The notes under the pieces are model-generated. The model made no database searches. It was given only the letters and a program-made list of their open reading frames with translations, and had not been told where the DNA came from. The position numbers and the translations under genes were made by a program. From Nitrosomonas sp. (GTDB taxonomy: Bacteria; Pseudomonadota; Gammaproteobacteria; Burkholderiales; Nitrosomonadaceae), in assembly GCA_039794425.1 (NCBI GenBank), contig JBDIVK010000012.1, positions 4,323-68,322 on the forward strand: DNA of 64,000 nt. The letters are read 5' to 3'. Below, in pieces: positions 6,405 through 63,677 of this stretch; the stretch's first letter is position 1; each line of letters opens with the position of its first letter.

Positions 6405-6542
6405 ATCCTAAAAACCGCAGTTGGACGCACACTCGGATGCGTAGCAGTTTCACCTACCGGGTCGGCATGAGTGAAGGCAACAAGCTCACTATCTATCGGG
6501 ACCTCTAGAGGTTGATAAGCGATCAACTGCGGTTTTTAGGAT
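6405..6542. repeat. MITE-like inverted-repeat element, family 1 copy A
   Basis: Perfect 19-bp terminal IR ATCCTAAAAACCGCAGTTG (6405-6423) / CAACTGCGGTTTTTAGGAT (6524-6542). The interior is shared with the copy at 27078. Confidence 0.85.
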
Positions 6543-27077: not shown

Positions 27078-27239
27078 AACCTAGAAACCGCAGTTGGACG
27101 TGCCCGAGTGTGCGTCTAGCCCGCTGCCTGGCAAGGCGCGACGAGACGGCAGAGGCGGCATGAGTGAAGGCAGCAAGCAAGCTCACTATCCATCGGGATA
27201 TCCGGAGGCTGATAAGCAGTCAACTGCGGTTTCTAGGTT
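27078..27239. repeat. MITE-like inverted-repeat element, family 1 copy B
   Basis: Perfect 19-bp terminal IR AACCTAGAAACCGCAGTTG / CAACTGCGGTTTCTAGGTT. Shares CGGCATGAGTGAAGGCA...CAAGCTCACTATC..ATCGGGA..GAGG.TGATAAGC with copy A. Confidence 0.85.
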
Positions 27240-28581: not shown

Positions 28582-29757
28582 TTGGATATCCACGAATATC
28601 AGGCCAAGGAAATCCTGGCTGAATACGGTATCAAACTAGCCGAAGGTGGTCTGGCACATACCGTGGAAGAAGCAGTCCAGCGTAGCCGGGAAATCGACGG
28701 TAACGTCTGGGTTGTCAAAGCGCAAATTCATTCCGGTGCACGCGGCAAAGCCGGTGGCATCAAAGTATGCCGAAATCATGAAGAAATCGAAACGGCTGCC
28801 GAATCGCTACTTGGTAAACGATTGGTCACCCATCAGACCGGGCCGCTGGGTAAACTTTGCTCGAAGCTGTATATCGAAGCGGGCACCGATATTGCCAAGG
28901 AATTATATCTTGCATTTATGATCGACCGCAGTCATGAACGGGTCATCATGGTTGGCTCAGCCCAAGGGGGAATGGATATCGAAACCCTGGCAGCCACCAA
29001 TCCCGATGCCATCAAAAAAATCTACATAGAACCTGCCGTAGGCTTGCAGGACTTCCAGGCAAGAAAAATGGCCTTCGCACTGGGACTGGGCGAGGAATTG
29101 CTCAATCACGCCGTCAAAACCATCAAGAGCTGTTACCGTGCCTTACGTAACCTAGACGCCAACATACTCGAAATCAATCCGCTGGTCGTCACTCGCAACA
29201 ACGAACTGATCGCACTCGATGCGAAAATGAGCTTCGACGAGAATGCTCTGTTCAGACGCCACCGAATATCCGAATTACGTGACAATACACAGGTCGACCC
29301 GCGCGAAGTGGCTGCAGCAGAAGCCGGTCTCAGCTATGTCGGACTGGATGGGGATATCGGCTGCATGATCAATGGTGCAGGACTTGCGATGGCCACTATG
29401 GACATGATCAAGCTGGCCGGTGGCGAACCGGCCAATTTTCTGGATGTTGGCGGAGGTGCCTCTGCTGAACGGACTGAAAAAGCCTTCCGGCTGGTACTGG
29501 CTGATCAAGGCGTCAAAGCGATGCTAGTCAATATTTTTGCCGGTATTAATCGCTGTGACTGGATTGCTGAAGGCGTAGTACAAGCGGTACGAAACATCGA
29601 CATGACCATCCCGCTGGTTGTCCGCCTCTCCGGCACTAATGTAGAGGAAGGCCGTCGCATCATCGCCGACAGTGGCTTACCGATCATCACGGCGGAAACC
29701 CTGGCCGATGCGGCAGAAAAAGTAGTGCAGGCACGTAATCAAGTGGTTGCAGGTTGA
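28582..29757 (+). CDS. mtkA: Malate--CoA ligase (malate thiokinase) beta subunit
   Basis: SucC fold with MtkA-type features: [32 protein letters not shown]; adjacent to mcl. Confidence 0.82.
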
Positions 29758-29785
29758 TACAACACGAAACGAAAGGAACAGAAAA

Positions 29786-30673
29786 GTGGCAATTTTGATC
29801 AATGAGCAAACACGCATCATCGTGCAAGGTTTTACCGGCCGGATCGGTACCTTCCATGCTCAGGAAATGATTGATTACGGGTCCAATGTCGTGGGAGGTG
29901 TGACGCCAGGTAAAGGTGGACAGAAACATCTGGGTCTGCCCGTATTCAATACAGTCAAGGAAGCCGTCGAACAGGTTGGAGCAGAAGCCAGCATCGTATT
30001 CGTACCCCCTGCCTTTGCAGCCGATTCGATCATGGAAGCAGCCGATGCGGGTATCAAGTACTGCGTTTCAATTACTGACGGCATCCCCACCCAGGATATG
30101 ATGACAGTCAAAAACTTTTTACGTCGATTCCCGAAAGCAAGCAGAATGATGCTGACCGGCCCTAACTGTTCGGGCACGATCAGCCCGGGACGTGCAATGC
30201 TCGGAATCATGCCGGGGCATATCTATACACGTGGCATAGTCGGCGTAGTCGGCCGTTCCGGAACACTGGGCTATGAAGCGGCAGATCAAATGAGGCGATT
30301 GAATATCGGTATTTCCACCTCGGTCGGGATCGGCGGAGACCCCATCATCGGCAGTTCTCATCGCGATGTCTTAGAGAAATTGGAGCAAGATACTGAAACC
30401 AAGGTCGCTCTGATGATCGGAGAAATTGGTGGCCCGATGGAAGTCGAGGCCGGTCTATTTGCCAAAGAAAACATGAGTAAACCCCTGATCGCCTATATCG
30501 CGGGGCTAACAGCACCAACCGGCCGGCGAATGGGACATGCCGGGGCAATCATTTCCTCAGCCGGTGAAAGTGCAGCGGAAAAAGTGGAACGGTTGAAAGA
30601 ATTGGGTGTAACCATCTGCCCGACTCCTTCGCTCATGGGACAAACAGTCGCCGAAGTACTGGCCAGGCTCTGA
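29786..30673 (+). CDS. mtkB: Malate--CoA ligase alpha subunit (SucD-like)
   Basis: GTG start giving MAILINEQTRIIVQGFTG; GPNC, SGTL, and the phospho-His motif RMGHAGAI. Confidence 0.82.
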   Translation: MAILINEQTRIIVQGFTGRIGTFHAQEMIDYGSNVVGGVTPGKGGQKHLGLPVFNTVKEAVEQVGAEASIVFVPPAFAADSIMEAADAGIKYCVSITDGIPTQDMMTVKNFLRRFPKASRMMLTGPNCSGTISPGRAMLGIMPGHIYTRGIVGVVGRSGTLGYEAADQMRRLNIGISTSVGIGGDPIIGSSHRDVLEKLEQDTETKVALMIGEIGGPMEVEAGLFAKENMSKPLIAYIAGLTAPTGRRMGHAGAIISSAGESAAEKVERLKELGVTICPTPSLMGQTVAEVLARL

Positions 30674-31111
30674 CTAGCCGAAATACCCTGATCCAGCCAG
30701 CCATACGGCACTGACAGCACGAGTGTTGCTGCATTAAAAGGCTAATTGAAGACCGCACAATTCGGCGAAGTTACCGTGAACACATATCCGGTAACTCCAC
30801 CGATCCTCCCAAGTCACCGAGTCAGCGAAGAATTAGAGAGCTCCGCTAATCGCATTTAGCAACAAGTGGGGTTCTTATTTGCAAGAACAGGGAATCTTGG
30901 TTCTGGATTCACCCCTTTCTTTCCCCGGGCGTTTCCTCTTGGCTCTCGCGAACTATCCAGCCTGATTTCCTCGAATTGTTCACACCTTTGGGTAGCTCTT
31001 TCTCATCCCCAAATTTCTTCATCATATCAAGAACTCTGAATGCACTCTTTCAAACTCACGGTCGACAGAAACTGTTTGGATAAGCGTAGTAGCGCTCAGT
31101 ACCAGTTGACG

Positions 31112-31270
31112 TAATGGAATGGACGCCCACTATCTTAAACGGCATCGAAGTGCCAAAGTAATGGAGCAGTAAAGCCCCCTGAACAAGAGAGAAGCGTCCG
31201 ACATGAAGATTACAACGATAGGTATTGATTTAGCAAAAGAAGTATTTCAGATTCACGGAGTAGATATGCG
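31112..31270 (+). mobile_element. IS110-family (IS1111 subgroup) left end and truncated transposase N-terminus
   Basis: 7-nt end TAATGGA plus subterminal IR ATGGACGCCC (31119-31128). From ATG 31203 it reads MKITTIGIDLAKEVFQIHGVD and is then interrupted. Confidence 0.75.
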
Positions 31271-31288
31271 TGACCTGGTCAGAGACAG

Positions 31289-31470
31289 ATGCGGCCTTAT
31301 TCACAAGATTTGAGGGATCGTATACTCACCGCATTGGAGCGTGGAGAATGTCCGACGGACATAGCGGCGCACTTTGAAGTGAGGCGGTGTGGGTGTATCA
31401 GGTACGTGATCGCTTCCGGAAGGTAAGCGCAGTCCGTTGCAAGTGGGTGATATCGGCTCCCGGGGCGCTC
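31289..31470 (+). mobile_element. IS630-family transposase N-terminal fragment (frameshifted)
   Basis: MRPYSQDLRDRILTALERGE..IAAHFEV, then after a frameshift VWVYQVRDRFRK: an HTH typical of IS630. Confidence 0.7.
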
Positions 31471-31475
31471 ATATG

Positions 31476-31518
31476 GAGCTGACGCTGCTCGCGGTACAGC
31501 TTAATTCAGGCGTTATGT
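31476..31518 (+). other. Partial integron attC site (central hairpin, L' and R' boxes)
   Basis: GAGCTGACGCTGCTCGCGGTACAGCTTAATTCAGGCGTTATGT closely resembles the 3' two-thirds of an aadA-type attC. The R'' half is missing. Confidence 0.75.
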
Positions 31519-31520
31519 TT

Positions 31521-31913
31521 TTACAAAGCTGAAACCAATCCGAGATATTTGACAAATGGATCAAAATCTCGATCCAAGTATAGAAGTGGTAGTTGATATT
31601 CTATGCAGTAGGTAGCAATGATGACATCATTTGTTTTGCGGACAGTAATTCCTTTTTTGCGCAAATCTCTATAGTTTTCAGCACATCGCTCAACCATAGA
31701 GCTATTAAAAATAGAATATTGATCAAGCTTTGCTAATCGATCCTTTGCTTGCACATAGTCCTTGTCGTTTTTAAAACCTTGCAGGACCTCCAGGAAGATC
31801 AAATCAGCAATCGCCACGGTACCAGCAAAGAGGGCGGCATCTAGGGTGTCGGTATGCGCATTAATATTGCCGTTAACGTAATCAATCCAAACACTGGTAT
31901 CAGCCAGTATCAT
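31521..31913 (-). CDS. vapC: VapC PIN-domain toxin
   Basis: MILADTSVWID, EVLQGF, RKKGITVRKTNDVIIA and DRDF acidic residues. Confidence 0.92.
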   Translation of the reverse strand: MILADTSVWIDYVNGNINAHTDTLDAALFAGTVAIADLIFLEVLQGFKNDKDYVQAKDRLAKLDQYSIFNSSMVERCAENYRDLRKKGITVRKTNDVIIATYCIEYQLPLLYLDRDFDPFVKYLGLVSAL

Positions 31914-32104
31914 TTGCCTCCTCTCATTTCATCCAAGTCGCCTTCCCACCTAAGCTTGCCTCTCAGCTCACGGATGGCTTGCTGATTACTACGCTGCAGT
32001 ATTAGTTTAAGTCCTTGCTCCACAACCTCTTTTTTCGTTTTAAGGCCGCTTACCTTAATAGCTTCGGCCATCAGTTCATCGTCAATTACAATATTGGTTC
32101 TCAT
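31910..32104 (-). CDS. vapB: VapB antitoxin (RHH, Rv0623/DUF2191-like)
   Basis: MRTNIVIDDELMAEAIKVSGLKTKKEVVEQGL; 4-bp overlap with vapC. Confidence 0.9.
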   Translation of the reverse strand: MRTNIVIDDELMAEAIKVSGLKTKKEVVEQGLKLILQRSNQQAIRELRGKLRWEGDLDEMRGGK

Positions 32105-32114
32105 AAGGCACCTG

Positions 32115-32141
32115 TGTGTATATAATCGTTTAGTATACACA
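32115..32141 (-). promoter_or_regulatory. vapBC promoter with palindromic operator
   Basis: IR TGTGTATA-N11-TATACACA overlapping a minus-strand TATACT -10 (32132-32137). Confidence 0.6.
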
Positions 32142-32153
32142 TTACACAGCAAG

Positions 32154-32185
32154 AAAAACATAACAAGCTACTCAACGGGACCAGT
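32154..32185 (+). other. Left half of the attC site belonging to the vapBC cassette (R'' and L'' boxes; truncated)
   Basis: AAAAACATAAC-AAGCTACTCAACGGGACC. The first 11 nt are the exact reverse complement of GTTATGTTTTT at 31512-31522. Confidence 0.7.
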
Positions 32186-32318
32186 GAGTGTTCACTTTTT
32201 TGATGGAACTCTCCCCTCCGCATGAGTACCTTCAGGTTATTTCCTTCTCGCAATTTATGCCGCAAGGTATTGTCAAATTCCATGCAACATTCAATGCTGA
32301 AATAAAATTGAGACAAGC

Positions 32319-33002
32319 ATGACCCTTAACTACCGCTGGCTTTACGACACAGTACGCAAGCGTTTTGAATCGGACGAGGCGATGGAAGCTTTCCTGCCCA
32401 AAGCGCTTACTTCCGAGGAGTTAAAGCAGAAGGGCGATGATCGCTATCTTTCTGCCATGAGCCAGCGGGTATTTCAGGCCGGTATGCAACACTCGGTGGT
32501 CAACGCCAAGTGGCCTGCCTTTGAAGAAGCCTTCTGGGGCTTTGTACCTGAAACAATGGTGTTGCTCAGCCCGGAGCAGATCGAAGGCTATATGAAAAAT
32601 AACCGAATCATCCGTCATTACACCAAACTGCAAACCATTCCCAGAAATGCCCAGTTTATTCTGGATATTCGCCAGGAACACGGCAGCAGTTTTGGCGAGT
32701 TTATTGCTGACTGGCCGAGTGCTAACATCATCGGCTTATGGCGTTTACTGGCCAAACGCGGTGCTCGCCTGGGCGGGCGCTCGGCTGCCGGATTTTTGCG
32801 TCTGGTCGGGAAGGATACTTTTTTATTGACCAGCGATGTGACTGCACGCCTGATAGCCGCGGGCATTATTGACCATGAACCTACCAGTCAGCGTGATATG
32901 CAAATCGTACAGGATGCTTTCAATGAATTACAGCAAGACTCAGGAAGACTGTTGTGTCAGCTATCGGCCATGCTGTCGTTGAGTATTAATCCGAGGTTTT
33001 AG
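32319..33002 (+). CDS. DNA-3-methyladenine glycosylase I family protein
   Basis: DDRYLSAMSQRVFQAGM, KWPAFEEAF, IIRHYTKLQTI. Confidence 0.8.
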   Translation: MTLNYRWLYDTVRKRFESDEAMEAFLPKALTSEELKQKGDDRYLSAMSQRVFQAGMQHSVVNAKWPAFEEAFWGFVPETMVLLSPEQIEGYMKNNRIIRHYTKLQTIPRNAQFILDIRQEHGSSFGEFIADWPSANIIGLWRLLAKRGARLGGRSAAGFLRLVGKDTFLLTSDVTARLIAAGIIDHEPTSQRDMQIVQDAFNELQQDSGRLLCQLSAMLSLSINPRF

Positions 33003-33086
33003 TGAGAAATTCAGGGCCTGGCCAATACGAGGTACAGTAAATCCTCTCCCAAATGGCACAATTTCTGATCTCAATGGAGGAGTAAC

Positions 33087-33572
33087 ATGACAATACCAGC
33101 AAAAAATACGGTTTGCCTTTGGTACGACGGCTGCGCTGAAGATGCGGCACGGTTTTACGCCGATACCTTTCCCGATTCGTTTGTCGGTGCAGTACATCGC
33201 GCACCGGGAGATTTTCCGTCAGGGAAGAAGGGGGACGTGCTGACCGTCGAATTTACCGTGATGGGCATCCCGTGCCTCGGGCTCAACGGTGGATCGGCAT
33301 TCAAGCACAGCGAGGCATTTTCGTTTCAGGTCGCAACTACTGATCAAGCCGAAACAGATCGCTATTGGAATGCGATCGTCGGCAATGGCGGTCAGGAAAG
33401 TGAATGTGGCTGGTGTAAGGACAAGTGGGGGTTATGCTGGCAGATAACGCCGATCATCCTGATGAAAGCGATCACCGATCCTGATCCCGTTGCTGCCAAG
33501 CGCGCGTTCGATGCAATGATGCAGATGAGAAAAATTGATATCGCCACAATCGAGGCAGCACTTCGTGGTTAA
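33087..33572 (+). CDS. VOC/PhnB-like protein (3-demethylubiquinone-9 3-methyltransferase family)
   Basis: CLWYDGCAEDAARFY, LNGG, CGWCKDKWGLCWQI, MMQMRKIDIA; GGAGG RBS. Confidence 0.88.
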   Translation: MTIPAKNTVCLWYDGCAEDAARFYADTFPDSFVGAVHRAPGDFPSGKKGDVLTVEFTVMGIPCLGLNGGSAFKHSEAFSFQVATTDQAETDRYWNAIVGNGGQESECGWCKDKWGLCWQITPIILMKAITDPDPVAAKRAFDAMMQMRKIDIATIEAALRG

Positions 33573-33655
33573 CATACGGGCAATCTGCTCAGACGCGCAT
33601 ATACGACAAATAACTTAACATTCTGGACTGCTTCTTCGGAATAAAATTTCGGTAG

Positions 33656-33825
33656 TTAAGGAAGCGCTGATTAAATCGATAAATGTCTTTGCGAACACCG
33701 AAGGGGTGAAGCAATCCAGCAGCGATGATGATAAAGGCACTGAATCGCCACGGCCCGGAGGGCCTCGCGAAGACAGGTGGAGGTGGTGTGGCTCGTGATG
33801 ACGGAATAAATCGGTGTTTGCTTAA
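33656..33825. repeat. Degenerate TTAA-bounded inverted-repeat element with internal palindromic unit
   Basis: TTAAGGAAGCGCTGATTAA ... TAAATCGGTGTTTGCTTAA imperfect IR; internal GTCTTTGCGA (33685) ... TCGCGAAGAC (33765-33774). Confidence 0.55.
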
Positions 33826-33969
33826 GGAACCTCTGAAAAACTACCTGCGTTGCCATTTCTGCGTTAAAAATCGGCTTAAAATGCTCATTTATTACGTATA
33901 AACTCCGCTTTTTCGCCGATTTTTGCCTTGAACTGACTGCCTCGCTGACGTTTTTCAGAGGTTCCTTAA
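33822..33969. repeat. MITE-like element, family 2, TTAA-bounded
   Basis: Perfect 20-bp terminal IR TTAAGGAACCTCTGAAAAAC / GTTTTTCAGAGGTTCCTTAA. Confidence 0.85.
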
Positions 33970-34012
33970 CGGGTTATCAGCTTCTGACAACCCGCTTAAT
34001 ACAAACATATCA

Positions 34013-56921: not shown

Positions 56922-59744
56922 TCAAGCATGGCAACGGGATTCTCCTGGTCCGGATAAATTACTCACACAACGACCACACAGTGTCGGATGATCAGTATGT
57001 TCTCCCACATCCTGCCGGTAATGCCAGCAGCGCTCACATTTCGGATGTGGACTCGCAGTCACGTTAATGGCCTCTGCTGCAACATGATCGACCCGCTGCA
57101 GGTGAACTTCCGAGGTAATCAGTACGAATCGCAGATCATCTCCCAACGAATCGAGCAATGTGTAATTTTCTCCGGCCGCTTGTATTTCCACGATCGCTGC
57201 CAGTGATGAGCCGATTTCGCCTTGAGCACGGGCATCTTCCAGTTGTTTTTGTACCTGTGCACGCCACTCACGCAACCGTTGCCACCGCTGCAACAATGTT
57301 TGCGTATCACACGGATTTCCCGCCTGTTCCGGAAATCGATGCCAAGTATGAAAAAATACGCTGTCATCTGCTGAACTACTCAACTGCTGCCACGCCTCTT
57401 CCGCAGTAAAGCTCAGAACGGGTGCGAACAATCGTACCAGACTGTGTGTGATATGGTAGAGTGCATGCTGCGCGGCACGCCGGGGAACACCGGCTGCTGC
57501 CGTAGTATAGAGTCGATCCTTGAGAATATCCAGGTAGAACCCTCCGAGATCTTCTGAACAAAAATTATGCAGCCTGGAAACCACCTGATGAAATTCATAG
57601 CGCTCATAAAGCTGGATGAGATCATGCTGTAGCGCCTCAGTATAAGCCAGCATATAGCGATCGATTTCCATCCATTCTTCGATCGGCAATGTTTCTGTAA
57701 CCGGGTTGAAATCAGCCAGATTCGCCAGCAAAAAGCGCAGGGTATTACGGATGCGTCGGTAAGTCTCAACGGTACGCTTGAGAATTTCATCGGAAATGGA
57801 CAGCTCGCCGGAATAATCAGTGGAAGCAACCCATAGTCGCAGAATATCAGCCCCCAATGTATCGGCAATTTTCTGTGGAGCAATCACATTACCCTTTGAT
57901 TTGCTCATCTTGTAGCCTTGACCATCCACCACGAAACCATGAGTGAGCAGAGCATCATAGGGTGCATATCCATCGATTGCACACCCCGTCAGCAATGAAG
58001 ACTGAAACCAGCCGCGATGCTGATCGGAACCTTCCAGATATAGATCAGCTGGATGCTTCAATTGCTCATTTTTCTTTAAGACCGTTTCATGCGTGGTACC
58101 GGAGTCGAACCAGACATCAAGCGTATCCGTCAACTTATGATATTGCTGCGCTTCTTCCCCCAGAATACTCTTCACATCAAGGCTGAACCATGCTTCTATT
58201 CCCTGCTGCTCGACCAGGCAGGCAATCTCTTCCAGCAGATCATCAGTACGCGGATGCAGTGTATGCGTATCTTTATGCACGAAGAAAGTCATCGGAACTC
58301 CCCAATTACGCTGGCGCGACACACACCAATCGGGGCGATTTGTGATCATTGCTTCGAGCCGCGCTCTGCCCCAGGCAGGATAAAAACGCGTAGTATCCAC
58401 TGCCCGGAGTGCCAATTCACGCAACGATGCTTTGGCAGACACCGGGATAGCCTCACCTTGCCGTTGCATACCAATAAACCACTGCGGCGTTGCACGAAAA
58501 ATTATCGGAGTTTTATGACGCCAGCAATGAGGATAGCTGTGCTCGATTTTTTCCACATGTAATAAATGATCACTGCTTTTCAGCGCATCGATCACAATAT
58601 CGTTAGCTTTCCAGACAAATAATCCTCCAACTAACGGCGTCTCATCGGAAAATTTGCCATCGCCATTCACCGGACTGTCATTAGGCAGACTATATTGTTG
58701 TCCGATAAAATAATCATCCAGACCGTGGGCAGGCGCAGTATGTACCAAGCCAGTACCGGCTTCCAATGTTACGTGCCGGCCACAAATCATCTTGACCATA
58801 CGTGCTGCAAAGGGATGCTGTAGAAGCAAGCCTTCCAGTAGCTGTCCTTTACAGGACGCTATAACTTGTCCTTCGAGCTGGTAGCGAGTGAGGCAAGCTT
58901 CCATCAGTTCAGAAGCCAGAATCAACCAGCTATGAGATGTTCTGACCAAGCTGTAGTCAAACTCCGGATGCACGCATATCGCTTGATTGGCTGGCAATGT
59001 CCACGGTGTAGTCGTCCAGATTACGGCATAAATTCTGGCATCGGTCGGTATAGGTACACCCAGCATACTCGCAAGCGGATGTTCTGCTCCTTTCTCGCCC
59101 ACTACTTCAAAACCGACATCAATTGCGGGCGAAAGCTTATTCTCATACTCTACCTCGGCTTCAGCCAGAGCTGAGCCACAGTCAATACACCAGTTGACAG
59201 GCTTGCGCCCCTGATAGAGATAACCATTCCGATAAATTTTACCTAGCGCACGAATAATGCCTGCTTCGGTAGCATAATTCATGGTGAGATAAGGATGCTC
59301 CCAGTCACCCAGTACGCCCAGCCGTATGAAATCTGCTTTCTGCCGCTCTACTTGCTCTTGCGCAAATGCTCGGCACAACTGCCGTATCTGATCGGCCGGC
59401 AAATGCTTGCCATATTTTTTTTCGATCTGATGCTCGATCGGCAAACCATGACAATCCCAGCCGGGCACATACGGCGCATCAAAGCCTGCCAGGGTCTTAC
59501 TCTTGATAATGATATCCTTGAGAATCTTGTTGACGGCATGTCCAATATGAATATCGCCATTGGCATAAGGTGGGCCGTCATGCAAGATGAATTTTGGGCG
59601 GCCCCGGCTGACGGCACGAATTCTCTGGTAAAGATTCTTTTCCTGCCAGGTTCTGAGCATGGCGGGCTCGCGCCTGGCCAGATCACCACGCATAGGGAAA
59701 AGCGTATCAGGCAGATTCAGGGTTTTCTTGTAATCGGTAGTCAT
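56922..59744 (-). CDS. ileS: Isoleucyl-tRNA synthetase
   Basis: [17 protein letters not shown], and a C-terminal zinc finger (CERCW..CGRC). Confidence 0.98.
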
Positions 59745-61502: not shown

Positions 61503-63677
61503 ATGCAACGCCAGTTTGGCATGCTGCTTCTGGCCATGTCATTAACCGCCTGTGCCGATGTCTGGAATAACCCATACCCTGCAGAAGATTCAGGTAAGAA
61601 CATTCTCTACAATGCTTTTGCCGAGCGCCCCAAACATCTGGATCCAGTACAGTCCTACAGTTCAAATGAAATCCTGTTCACTACCCAGATCTACCAGTCT
61701 CCTCTGCAATACCACTATTTAAAGCGGCCACTGACTCTGATTCCTCAAACGGCCAGCAGCATGCCTACTGTCCATTATTTCGATGCTAATGGTTCACAAT
61801 TACCGGACGATACAACCAGCGCAAATGTTGCTTACTCAGTTTATGAAATTTCCATCAGACCCGGCATCCTTTATCAACCTCATCCGGCATTTGCCAGAGA
61901 CGAGAAAAAAAACCTGCTTTATCATACATTGACCACACAGGATACGCGACCAATATACAAAATAAGTGATTTCGAATATACCGGAACCCGAGAACTGATA
62001 GCAGATGACTACATTTATCAGATAAAGCGACTCGCGCATCCTAAACTACATTCACCAATCTTTGGTCTGATGGCCGACTACATCGTAGGATTGCACGAGT
62101 ACGCAGATACATTGAGGCAACACACTGATACTCTGCCCAAGAATACATTTCTGGATCTGCGCGAGTTCCCTCTGGAGGGGGTAGAACGAATAGACGATTA
62201 CACCTATCGCATTCGTATTAAAGGTAAATATCCACAGTTCCTGTACTGGCTCGCTATGCCGTTTTTTGCTCCGATTCCGTGGGAAGCAGATCATTTTTTT
62301 TCACAGCCGGGCATGGCAGAAAAGAATCTTACGCTTGACTGGTACCCGGTAGGAACAGGCCCATATATGCTGACTGAGAACGACCCGAACCGAATTATGG
62401 TGCTGGAGCGCAATCCGAATTTTCAAGGAGAATATTATCCAGATGAAGGTATGCCGGCAGACATAGAAAAAGGTCTGTTGCAAGATGCAGGTAAACCGAT
62501 CCCGTTCATCGACAAAGTTGTATTCAGCCGCGAAAAAGAAGGCATCCCGCGCTGGAATAAATTCTTGCAGGGGTATTACGACGCATCAGGTATCGGTTCG
62601 GATAGCTTTGATCAAGCCGTACAGATAACTGGACAAGGTGAAGCAACGGTTACTGACAAAATGGAAGCGCAAGGTATTCGCCTTGAAACAACTGTAGCAC
62701 CCTCCACCTACTATATGGGTTTCAATATGCTTGATCCGATTGTAGGTGGCCGTACCGAGCAAGAAAAAATATCCGCCCGTAAGCTGCGTCAAGCCATTTC
62801 CATTGCAGTAAATTATGAAGAATTTATTTCGATATTCGCTAATGGTCGCGGTATTCCGGCACAGGGACCACTGCCCCCGGGCATTGAAGGCCACCATGAA
62901 GGTAAAAAAGGCATGAACCCGATTGTTTATGAGTGGCACGATGGCGAAGCCCAGCGTAAATCGATCAGGCAAGCCAAAGCATTGCTTGCCGAAGCTGGCT
63001 ATCCCGGGGGTATTGATATGAAAACCGGCAAGCCGCTCGTCTTGTATTTTGACGCCACAGCACGCAGCGCAGATGATAAATCCATCATGGACTGGATGCG
63101 GATGCAGTTCCGAAAACTGAATATACAATTGGTCGTACGCAGCACCGATTACAATCGGTTCCAGGACAAAATACGCAAAGGCAATGCACAAATTTTCGAA
63201 TGGGGCTGGAATGCGGATTATCCTGATCCGGAAAATTTTCTGTTTCTATTATATGGCCCACAACGTAAGGTAGGTAATAATGGTGAAAACGCTGCTAATT
63301 ATGATAACGCTGAATACAACCGCCTGTTCGTACAGATGAAAAATATGGAGCCAGGCCCACAGCGTATGCGTATCATCAACCGAATGATCGCTATTCTGCG
63401 GGAAGATGCGCCTTGGCTATGGGGCTATCATCCAATGGAGTATGCTTTATATCATTCCTGGTACCGGAACGTGAAGCCTAACAGGTTGGCCTATAACACC
63501 ATCAAATATTTTCGGATAGACCCGGTTTTACGCGAACAAAAACGACGTGAGTGGAACGAACCGGTAATCTGGCCAATCGGTACAGGCATAGCCCTACTCG
63601 TAATCTGCCTGATGCCGGCATGGCTGGCTTATCGCCGTCGGGAACGGAAGCAGAGTATCGTCAAGCAGGCAGCTTAA
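61503..63677 (+). CDS. ABC transporter family 5 (peptide/nickel) substrate-binding lipoprotein
   Basis: Lipobox LTAC, PVGTGPY, GWNADYPDPENF, and a C-terminal TM helix. Confidence 0.9.
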   Translation: MQRQFGMLLLAMSLTACADVWNNPYPAEDSGKNILYNAFAERPKHLDPVQSYSSNEILFTTQIYQSPLQYHYLKRPLTLIPQTASSMPTVHYFDANGSQLPDDTTSANVAYSVYEISIRPGILYQPHPAFARDEKKNLLYHTLTTQDTRPIYKISDFEYTGTRELIADDYIYQIKRLAHPKLHSPIFGLMADYIVGLHEYADTLRQHTDTLPKNTFLDLREFPLEGVERIDDYTYRIRIKGKYPQFLYWLAMPFFAPIPWEADHFFSQPGMAEKNLTLDWYPVGTGPYMLTENDPNRIMVLERNPNFQGEYYPDEGMPADIEKGLLQDAGKPIPFIDKVVFSREKEGIPRWNKFLQGYYDASGIGSDSFDQAVQITGQGEATVTDKMEAQGIRLETTVAPSTYYMGFNMLDPIVGGRTEQEKISARKLRQAISIAVNYEEFISIFANGRGIPAQGPLPPGIEGHHEGKKGMNPIVYEWHDGEAQRKSIRQAKALLAEAGYPGGIDMKTGKPLVLYFDATARSADDKSIMDWMRMQFRKLNIQLVVRSTDYNRFQDKIRKGNAQIFEWGWNADYPDPENFLFLLYGPQRKVGNNGENAANYDNAEYNRLFVQMKNMEPGPQRMRIINRMIAILREDAPWLWGYHPMEYALYHSWYRNVKPNRLAYNTIKYFRIDPVLREQKRREWNEPVIWPIGTGIALLVICLMPAWLAYRRRERKQSIVKQAA

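Follow-up and report, generated by a model that had tools for sequence, protein, structure and literature searches.

A vapBC module in Nitrosomonas as the probable remnant of an integron gene cassette

The DNA discussed here, which we call the window, is a stretch of 64,000 nucleotides (C12:4323-68322, C12 being one contig of a 2.89-Mb draft genome of Nitrosomonas) that includes a vapBC operon on the minus strand. The vapC gene (31521..31913) encodes a PIN-domain toxin of 130 aa (Pfam PF01850, E 1.4e-11) with its catalytic acidic residues intact, and D5, E42, D96, D114 and D116 are invariant in an alignment with homologues. It is preceded by vapB (31910..32104), for an antitoxin of 64 aa (Pfam PF09957, E 3.1e-16), and the two genes overlap by 4 nt (ATGA); the gene call for vapB at homologous loci is likewise 64 aa. 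A PIN toxin with its acidic residues and a small overlapping vapB before it are the marks of a type II toxin-antitoxin (TA) system of the VapBC kind. Next to vapB there is a palindrome (GTGTATA ... TATACAC, 32114..32141, minus strand), read from the sequence, and homologous cassettes have the same palindrome, TGTGTATA...TATACACA, at the equivalent place. We infer that it is the vapBC operator, and the promoter is presumed to be in the same region. In the orientation of an integron array the vapBC gene cassette is read on the plus strand from 31513 to 32179, beginning with TTATGTTTTT and ending where the 5' half of its own attC ceases to be recognisable, so that the palindrome is inside the cassette and the vapC stop codon is inside its 5' boundary. 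The GC content of the cassette is 40.5%, against 47.9% for the window. From its sequence this appears to be an intact type II module of foreign base composition, and it is probably active.

To the left of the cassette mtkB (29747-30673) is followed by about 430 nt with weak repeats, and then by fragments of two insertion sequences, both on the plus strand. The first (31107..31272, 166 nt) belongs to an IS110/IS1111-family element, of which the left terminus and the 23 initial codons are preserved; its identity is 99% with the start of the full copy at C1:218906 and 90% with that at C24:26666. It is cut off by the second (31276..31465, with an ORF at 31289-31426), an N-terminal transposase remnant, MRPYSQDLRDRILTALERGE..., that abuts the broken 5' end of the attC site described below and that we assign provisionally to the IS630 family by its motifs, Pfam giving no match. 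To the right there are genes for a Tag-like (Adenine_glyco) glycosylase (32319-33002) and a PhnB-like protein (33087-33572), both on the plus strand, and then hemE and valS on the minus strand. The 168-nt element at 33803-33970, with an inverted repeat of about 15 nt (TTAAGGAACCTCTG...) and an inverted copy of 88.7% identity elsewhere in the related genome G040, looks like a miniature inverted-repeat element. Long palindromes on CCTAAAAACCGCAGTTGGACGC... at 6405-6532 and 27078-27229 of the window and at G000:C17:53560-53610 form a dispersed family that is REP-like or terminator-like.

The interval between mtkB and hemE is a variable region within the genus. The Tag-like gene is present in 2 of the 41 genomes of the genus, and in G040 it is between rpoZ and hemE-valS, with neither vapBC nor the PhnB-like gene. 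Only one genome, G001, has mtkB beside hemE, the two being only about 1.1 kb apart, and for this reason no simple empty site can be defined.

The earlier note on this DNA drew attention to an 11-mer, GTTATGTTTTT, at 31512-31522 and its exact reverse complement, AAAAACATAAC, at 32154-32164, and both the coordinates and the complementarity are correct. The two are separated by 631 nt, and AAGCTACTCAACGGGACC can be read directly 3' of AAAAACATAAC. However 60 pairs of inverted 11-mers occur in the window at distances of 100-1000 nt, making up about 18 distinct repeats, where Markov-1 random sequence gives about 17 pairs on average, and most of the excess comes from a few long palindromes. A perfect inverted repeat of 11 nt is not in itself beyond chance, and it is the match to attC half-sites that makes the site significant.

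As Rfam has no attC model, we built our own covariance model iteratively. The seed model, R1, comprised seven attC sites (that of catB3, five from plasmid pHRM2a and one from the genome's own array), with one spacer base removed from two of the seeds to bring them into register; an RNAalifold consensus on the seven seed sites lost the R-box pairs, and the structure was entered by hand. For R2 we took 55 real matches, from arrays of Nitrosomonas, from pHRM2a and from a class 1 integron, and for R3 120 matches, adding arrays beside VapC homologues, with 5 of the 120 rows (about 4%) being mirror-strand matches of near-palindromic sites. Sequence of the window was excluded from the training of all three. 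The models are home-made and the E-values are rough. Because truncated sites cannot score in a full-length model, we also made separate weight matrices for the two half-sites, each of 22 positions, from the 115 correctly oriented rows of alignment A5, and scanned both strands of the genome with them (5.77 million positions). A heuristic attC finder using core-site patterns and folding energy was dropped as too noisy, giving many false matches on C9 and C17. There is also a weak attC-like match at 62510-62570 of the window (minus strand), without AAC/GTT cores, for which the score drops as the model broadens (15.1 bits with R1, 11.0 with R2 and 9.8 with R3), and which is probably due to chance.

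The left flank of the cassette reads as the remnant of the attC of a preceding, lost cassette (31467..31518, plus strand). The stem, L', the spacer and R' are present, while R'' and the 5' spacer are absent. With filters off it scores 13.5 bits with R1, 13.9 bits with R2 (E 0.39) and 11.8 bits with R3 (E 2.6), and for R2 and R3 it is the top match in the whole 64-kb window, yet it is below threshold and below genome-wide significance. In the alignment L'' through R' is matched at all positions up to the terminal GTTATGT at 31512-31518, and R'' with the 5' spacer is replaced by GCTCA with a deletion of 7 positions. The 3'-half matrix gives 26.1 bits at 31497-31518 (training median 23.2), which ranks first among the 5.77 million genome positions; with the 5'-half matrix no 5' half was found in the window preceding 31497. 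The crossover point G|TT is at 31512/31513, and the cassette begins there as expected for the G|TT of a preceding attC. The R' box departs once from the consensus GTTRRRY, with T at the second R, and the same departure is found in the genuine attC of catB3 (GTTATGC) and of pHRM2a (GTTATGT).

The earlier note described this flank as the 3' part of an aadA-type attC, and both the attribution and the likeness hold. With 31440-31530 as BLAST query against 72,556 plasmids, 2024 records were matched, of which two matches were inspected. The best match is a cassette attC on the Desulforapulum plasmid pHRM2a, and the listed class 1 integron match is the attC after catB3. Over 31477-31517 the identity is 83-84% both to this pHRM2a site and to the 60-nt attC of the catB3 cassette, which is carried by more than 2000 class 1 integron plasmids, and the aligned part comprises the attC stem, L', the spacer TCAGGC and R' GTTATG. 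The remnant thus resembles the short (about 60 nt) class 1 attC sites (catB3, aadA) over about 41 nt, with L', the spacer TCAGGC and R' GTTATG(C/T) in common. It differs from them in having no R'' or 5' spacer, and in its loop, GCTGACGCTGCT(T)CGCGGTACAG, which is almost identical in an attC of the genome itself on C17 and does not match the clinical sites. The remnant is 87% identical to this attC (C17:54129-54167), and comparison of the loops points to an attC type of the host lineage.

On the right is the 5' half of what appears to be the cassette's own attC (32154..32179, plus strand), with an A-run, R'' ACATAAC (32158-32164), the spacer AAGCT and an L''-like ACTCAACGGG. Together with the A-run before it, ACATAAC forms an 11-nt complement to GTTATGTTTTT, so that R'' is the complement of the first bases of the cassette, as it should be in a cassette's own attC, and a genuine pHRM2a cassette has the same extended R'' complementarity. 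The 5'-half matrix gives 20.4 bits at 32158-32179 (training median 21.3), ranking fifth genome-wide, and of the four sites that outscore it three, on C9, C7 and C10, were identified as attC sites independently. The remaining one, G000:C13:18052 (minus strand, GTATAACCAGGCACTCCAGCCG), has the highest 5'-half score in the genome, 24.8 bits. Elsewhere in the window neither matrix gives a score above 12.4 bits, and the two half-sites are on the same strand and in correct cassette order, 640 nt apart and enclosing vapBC.

The right site was not detected as a whole attC by R1, R2 or R3. An R3 search of 32120-32290 gave a 5.6-bit partial alignment via ACATAACAAG and no score for 32158-32243, and for the L'/R' 3' half there is no 3'-half matrix score of 10 bits or more anywhere downstream of 32179. 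The segment 32158-32243 can fold weakly into an attC-like hairpin that has GTTATTT at its end (-12.7 kcal/mol and z -2.2 for the bottom strand; other z -1.2), and by this folding may be a much-decayed but full-length attC. We considered it as a full site of 86 nt and rejected it, as the hairpin is weak, with 11 of 19 arm positions complementary by eye, and the 3'-half matrix gives no support. A complete foldable attC, running R''-L''-loop-L'-R', is thus not found at the right site, and what we have is therefore a cassette remnant and not an intact cassette. In an alignment with G040, made to locate the right truncation point, clear homology begins only at about 32310, with a shared 13-mer, CACTTTTTTGATG, that is out of register. 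The suggestion in the earlier note that both attC sites are truncated is supported by the combination of whole sites that fail the covariance models with half-sites that rank first and fifth genome-wide. We also considered the Tag-like and PhnB-like genes as possible cassettes, and rejected this since they have no half-sites and the G040 copy of the Tag-like gene is between rpoZ and hemE.

A scan of 185,579 species genomes gave 80 loci with relatives of the window VapC, and some of these are cassettes in genuine arrays. At about 24 of the 80 there are model-supported attC sites at the equivalent two positions, directly flanking vapBC and antisense to it. With R2 at E up to 1 there are 64 attC matches in the 80 loci, 61 of them on the strand opposite vapBC, and of the other three two mirror stronger matches. 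In about 20 loci the attC match ends about 250 nt before the vapC start, that is about 55 nt upstream of vapB, which equals the spacing from 32104 to 32158 in the window, and in eight loci a match begins 7-15 nt past the vapC stop. Several of the homologues (at L074, L095, L140 and L127) are within multi-attC arrays. The VapBC family to which this module belongs is thus a widespread antisense integron cassette in Gamma- and Betaproteobacteria.

These homologues have one architecture, in which the vapB start is followed by the palindrome, an A-run, ACATAAC, AAG and an attC of variable length (58-152 nt). AAAAACATAACAAG, upstream of vapB, recurs across the family and is nearly invariant in alignment A6 of the homologues, and the vapC stop is within ...AAACATAAC, the complement of the first bases of the cassette. 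About half of the homologue loci retain the boundary motifs. As these motifs are conserved in homologous cassettes, the 11-mers of the window are inherited cassette boundaries and not a coincidence, and the view that they are the complementary core and inverse-core sites of a cassette is upheld by this conservation by descent. The same is true of the proposal that the TA pair is antisense to its array and has its own promoter region, given the conserved operator-like palindrome and the position of the homologues' attC sites opposite vapBC. The earlier note had named two observations that together would refute a cassette: no attC model match, and homologous loci without such flanks. The first holds in that the models give only sub-threshold matches; the second fails decisively, with genuine attC sites in those flanks.

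The closest attC-bearing homologue is that of Thiodiazotropha (85% aa identity), with its own attC of 116 nt (25.3 bits with R3), and the homology of the window to this cassette covers 31528-32167. The closest homologue of all is in Nitrosomonas sp. HPC101 (91% aa identity, and 85% nt identity over 31537-32142 only), at a different chromosomal site; no attC flanks or attC trace were found at the HPC101 vapBC, which shows that the module exists outside cassettes too.

At least 20 contigs of varied origin (metagenome assemblies and a MAG) have a gene for the identical VapC. Four of these contigs are 97.5-99.7% identical to the window from 31282 to as far as 33687, keeping the junction of the IS630 fragment with the left attC and both half-sites, while their outer flanks differ, there being a heme-binding FMP-type gene at one end and an IS110 transposase at the other. 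As the same truncated arrangement is present on related contigs with different outer flanks, it is fixed and not an assembly artefact, and the shared truncations must be older than the split between these strains. Left of 31282 the related strains no longer match the window, and they have the break without the IS110-family fragment (31107-31272). The fragment is therefore a later arrival and not the cause of the break. The IS630 junction is the likely break point of the left attC.

With regard to the integrase, the earlier note held that there was none in the window, and this is correct: we found no intI in the 64 kb, and the vapBC locus on C12 has no intI adjacent to it. It does not extend to the genome, as the only TIGR02249 match above cut-off (C9:57793-58731) is an intact integron integrase gene, with 483 bits against a cut-off of 265 and no stops, and it is accompanied by an array of at least five attC sites (61516, 63008, 63353, 64171 and 64727). 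The complete integron (C9:57793-68000) has an attI-like GTTAGGC near 58880, and its array extends up to cbbR and RuBisCO genes; a group II intron, with its reverse transcriptase on the minus strand, is at about 59.7-61.5 kb. Further attC sites, with no intI near them, are on C7 (66938 and, from the matrix, 67590), C10 (60877 and 61928), C17 (53631 and 54126) and C6 (119411). These form pairs at C7:66938-67680, C10:60877-61995 and C17:53631-54187, and a single site at C6:119411-119489. In the C7 cluster, which comes after a P-type ATPase gene, there are two ORFs, one small and lipoprotein-like and the other peroxiredoxin-like. As candidates the sites on C7 and C10 are better than those at the vapBC locus, and those on C17 are weaker than those on C7 and C10.

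Taking these data together, we think it very likely that vapBC is a gene cassette from a former integron array, that the array has since been broken up, and that the cassette is now immobile. We regard the cassette origin as settled because homologous loci carry attC sites at the same positions. The cassette would once have been part of an array, antisense to it and transcribed from its own promoter. With the later disruption of the array, the upstream neighbour's attC would have lost its R'' core and spacer at the junction now held by the IS630-family and IS110-family fragments, and the cassette's own attC would have lost everything past L''. We infer that IS activity caused the left truncation. 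Neither site would then recombine, leaving the cassette fixed in place, and what remains would be a vapBC module beside accessory genes, those for the Tag-like glycosylase and the PhnB-like protein. It is plausible that post-segregational killing by VapC favoured retention of the fragment, in line with the earlier note's proposal that the addictive TA cassette alone outlived the array.

There are other ways to account for the locus. It might be an ordinary chromosomal vapBC with a fortuitous 11-nt inverted repeat and an AT-rich core-like sequence, as 11-nt inverted repeats are common in the window and neither site passes the full attC covariance model. However such a chance resemblance is hardly credible: the half-sites rank first and fifth genome-wide, with the strand and order expected of a cassette, the left site has the catB3 attC of more than 2000 plasmids as a match, and both motifs are retained in homologous cassettes with genuine attC sites. 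A single cassette might also have been integrated by an integron integrase at a secondary, non-attC site downstream of mtkB, without ever having been in an array. Insertion at secondary sites is known to give rise to CALIN, attC clusters with no integron integrase nearby (PMC4889954), and there would be a parallel in G016, where a lone cassette is found about 700 bp past mtkB. This has a complete 61-nt attC scoring 50 bits with R3 (contig C33; L062 5189-5249), and its 179-aa ORF begins at GTTAGGCC in non-attC DNA and ends with GGCCTAAC and the attC, so that it looks like a secondary-site insertion, and cassettes may have landed repeatedly in the region after mtkB. The G016 cassette is followed by a gene resembling those for REP-associated tyrosine transposases. 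At the vapBC locus, however, the left junction is an attC with stem, L', spacer and R' and not chromosomal DNA, and the right attC is incomplete, whereas insertion at a secondary site should have left a complete one. Nor does the left remnant read as the 3' half of the cassette's own attC, the two halves not being complementary beyond the R box. We consider origin by secondary-site insertion quite improbable.

Slightly less probable still, in our view, is that the cassette remains mobile, its degenerate sites being functional attC sites recombined in trans by the C9 IntI. The genome does have an intact intI, the 11-bp R-box complementarity is perfect and there is the weak hairpin at 32158-32243 ending in GTTATTT. 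However R'' is missing from the left site, L' and R' cannot be recognised in the right one, and the arrangement is unchanged in the at least 20 related contigs. Integron integrase acts on a folded attC strand with paired R and L boxes, so neither half-site should be a substrate, and from their sequences both are probably inactive. A further proposal, compatible with the origin in a broken array that we prefer, is that the relic travels in an IS-bounded block and owes its position between mtkB and hemE to IS-mediated rearrangement. The 2.4-kb block 31282-33687 consists of the IS630 fragment, half attC, vapBC, half attC and the Tag-like and PhnB-like genes, and may move or rearrange as a unit. 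In favour of this are its 97.5-99.7% identity in contigs with differing outer flanks, the occurrence of the Tag-like gene in only 2 of 41 genomes of the genus, and the distance of only about 1.1 kb between mtkB and hemE in G001. Against it, no composite-transposon terminal repeats were found, and in G040 the Tag-like gene is beside hemE-valS without vapBC, which puts part of the block in a stable chromosomal context. We think this proposal rather unlikely, though far less so than the other three.

The locus is a decayed example of things that are known, TA cassettes and CALIN-type relics. Like the TA cassettes of sedentary chromosomal integrons, for example the Vibrio cholerae superintegron, it combines a type II TA operon and a promoter of its own in one integron cassette. 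It differs in being a VapBC in Nitrosomonas, outside an array and with half of each attC, and with only these halves in its flanks the cassette would no longer be excisable. TA cassettes of chromosomal integrons are thought to stabilise the arrays, since their loss is lethal to the cell (Richard et al. 2024, PMC13108822), and retention of vapBC through addiction, which is plausible, would be consistent with that role. With CALIN it shares the presence of cassette material far from intI in an IntI-encoding genome with an IS nearby, and IS activity and rearrangement are among the origins of CALIN listed by Cury et al. (2016, PMC4889954). However the definition of CALIN needs at least two detectable attC sites, and here none passes the full attC model (11.8-13.9 bits at best, with home-made models), so that the locus is a decayed remnant below that definition.

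There is also some likeness to the targets of the IS1111-attC group, elements that insert near the 5' end of attC (Tetu and Holmes 2008; Post and Hall 2009; both cited through PMC3001079 and PMC11187229), in that an IS110/IS1111-family fragment is beside an attC broken near its 5' end. However those elements are antisense to the array (PMC3001079), whereas the fragment in the window is sense, and its full copies on C1 and C24 are outside attC sites. We considered that an attC-targeting element of this type had broken the left attC, and rejected this on the grounds of its orientation, the location of the other copies, and the related strains that have the break without the fragment.

The vapBC relic does not change what is known of integrons or TA systems, and its value is as a clean and datable example of integron cassettes stranded in chromosomes. 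It also illustrates a practical limit, as such a relic is missed by full-length attC covariance models and becomes unambiguous once half-sites are scored separately and homologues compared. We suggest, tentatively and as somewhat less probable than its converse, that integron arrays are a source of ordinary chromosomal TA loci, with the addictive TA cassette, as the part that the cell cannot afford to lose, outliving its attC sites as the array decays and turning into a fixed module of the chromosome. If this is true, the window would represent an intermediate stage in which half of each attC can still be read, and Nitrosomonas sp. HPC101, with a vapBC of 85% identical DNA in which homology stops just inside the cassette boundaries, would represent the end stage.
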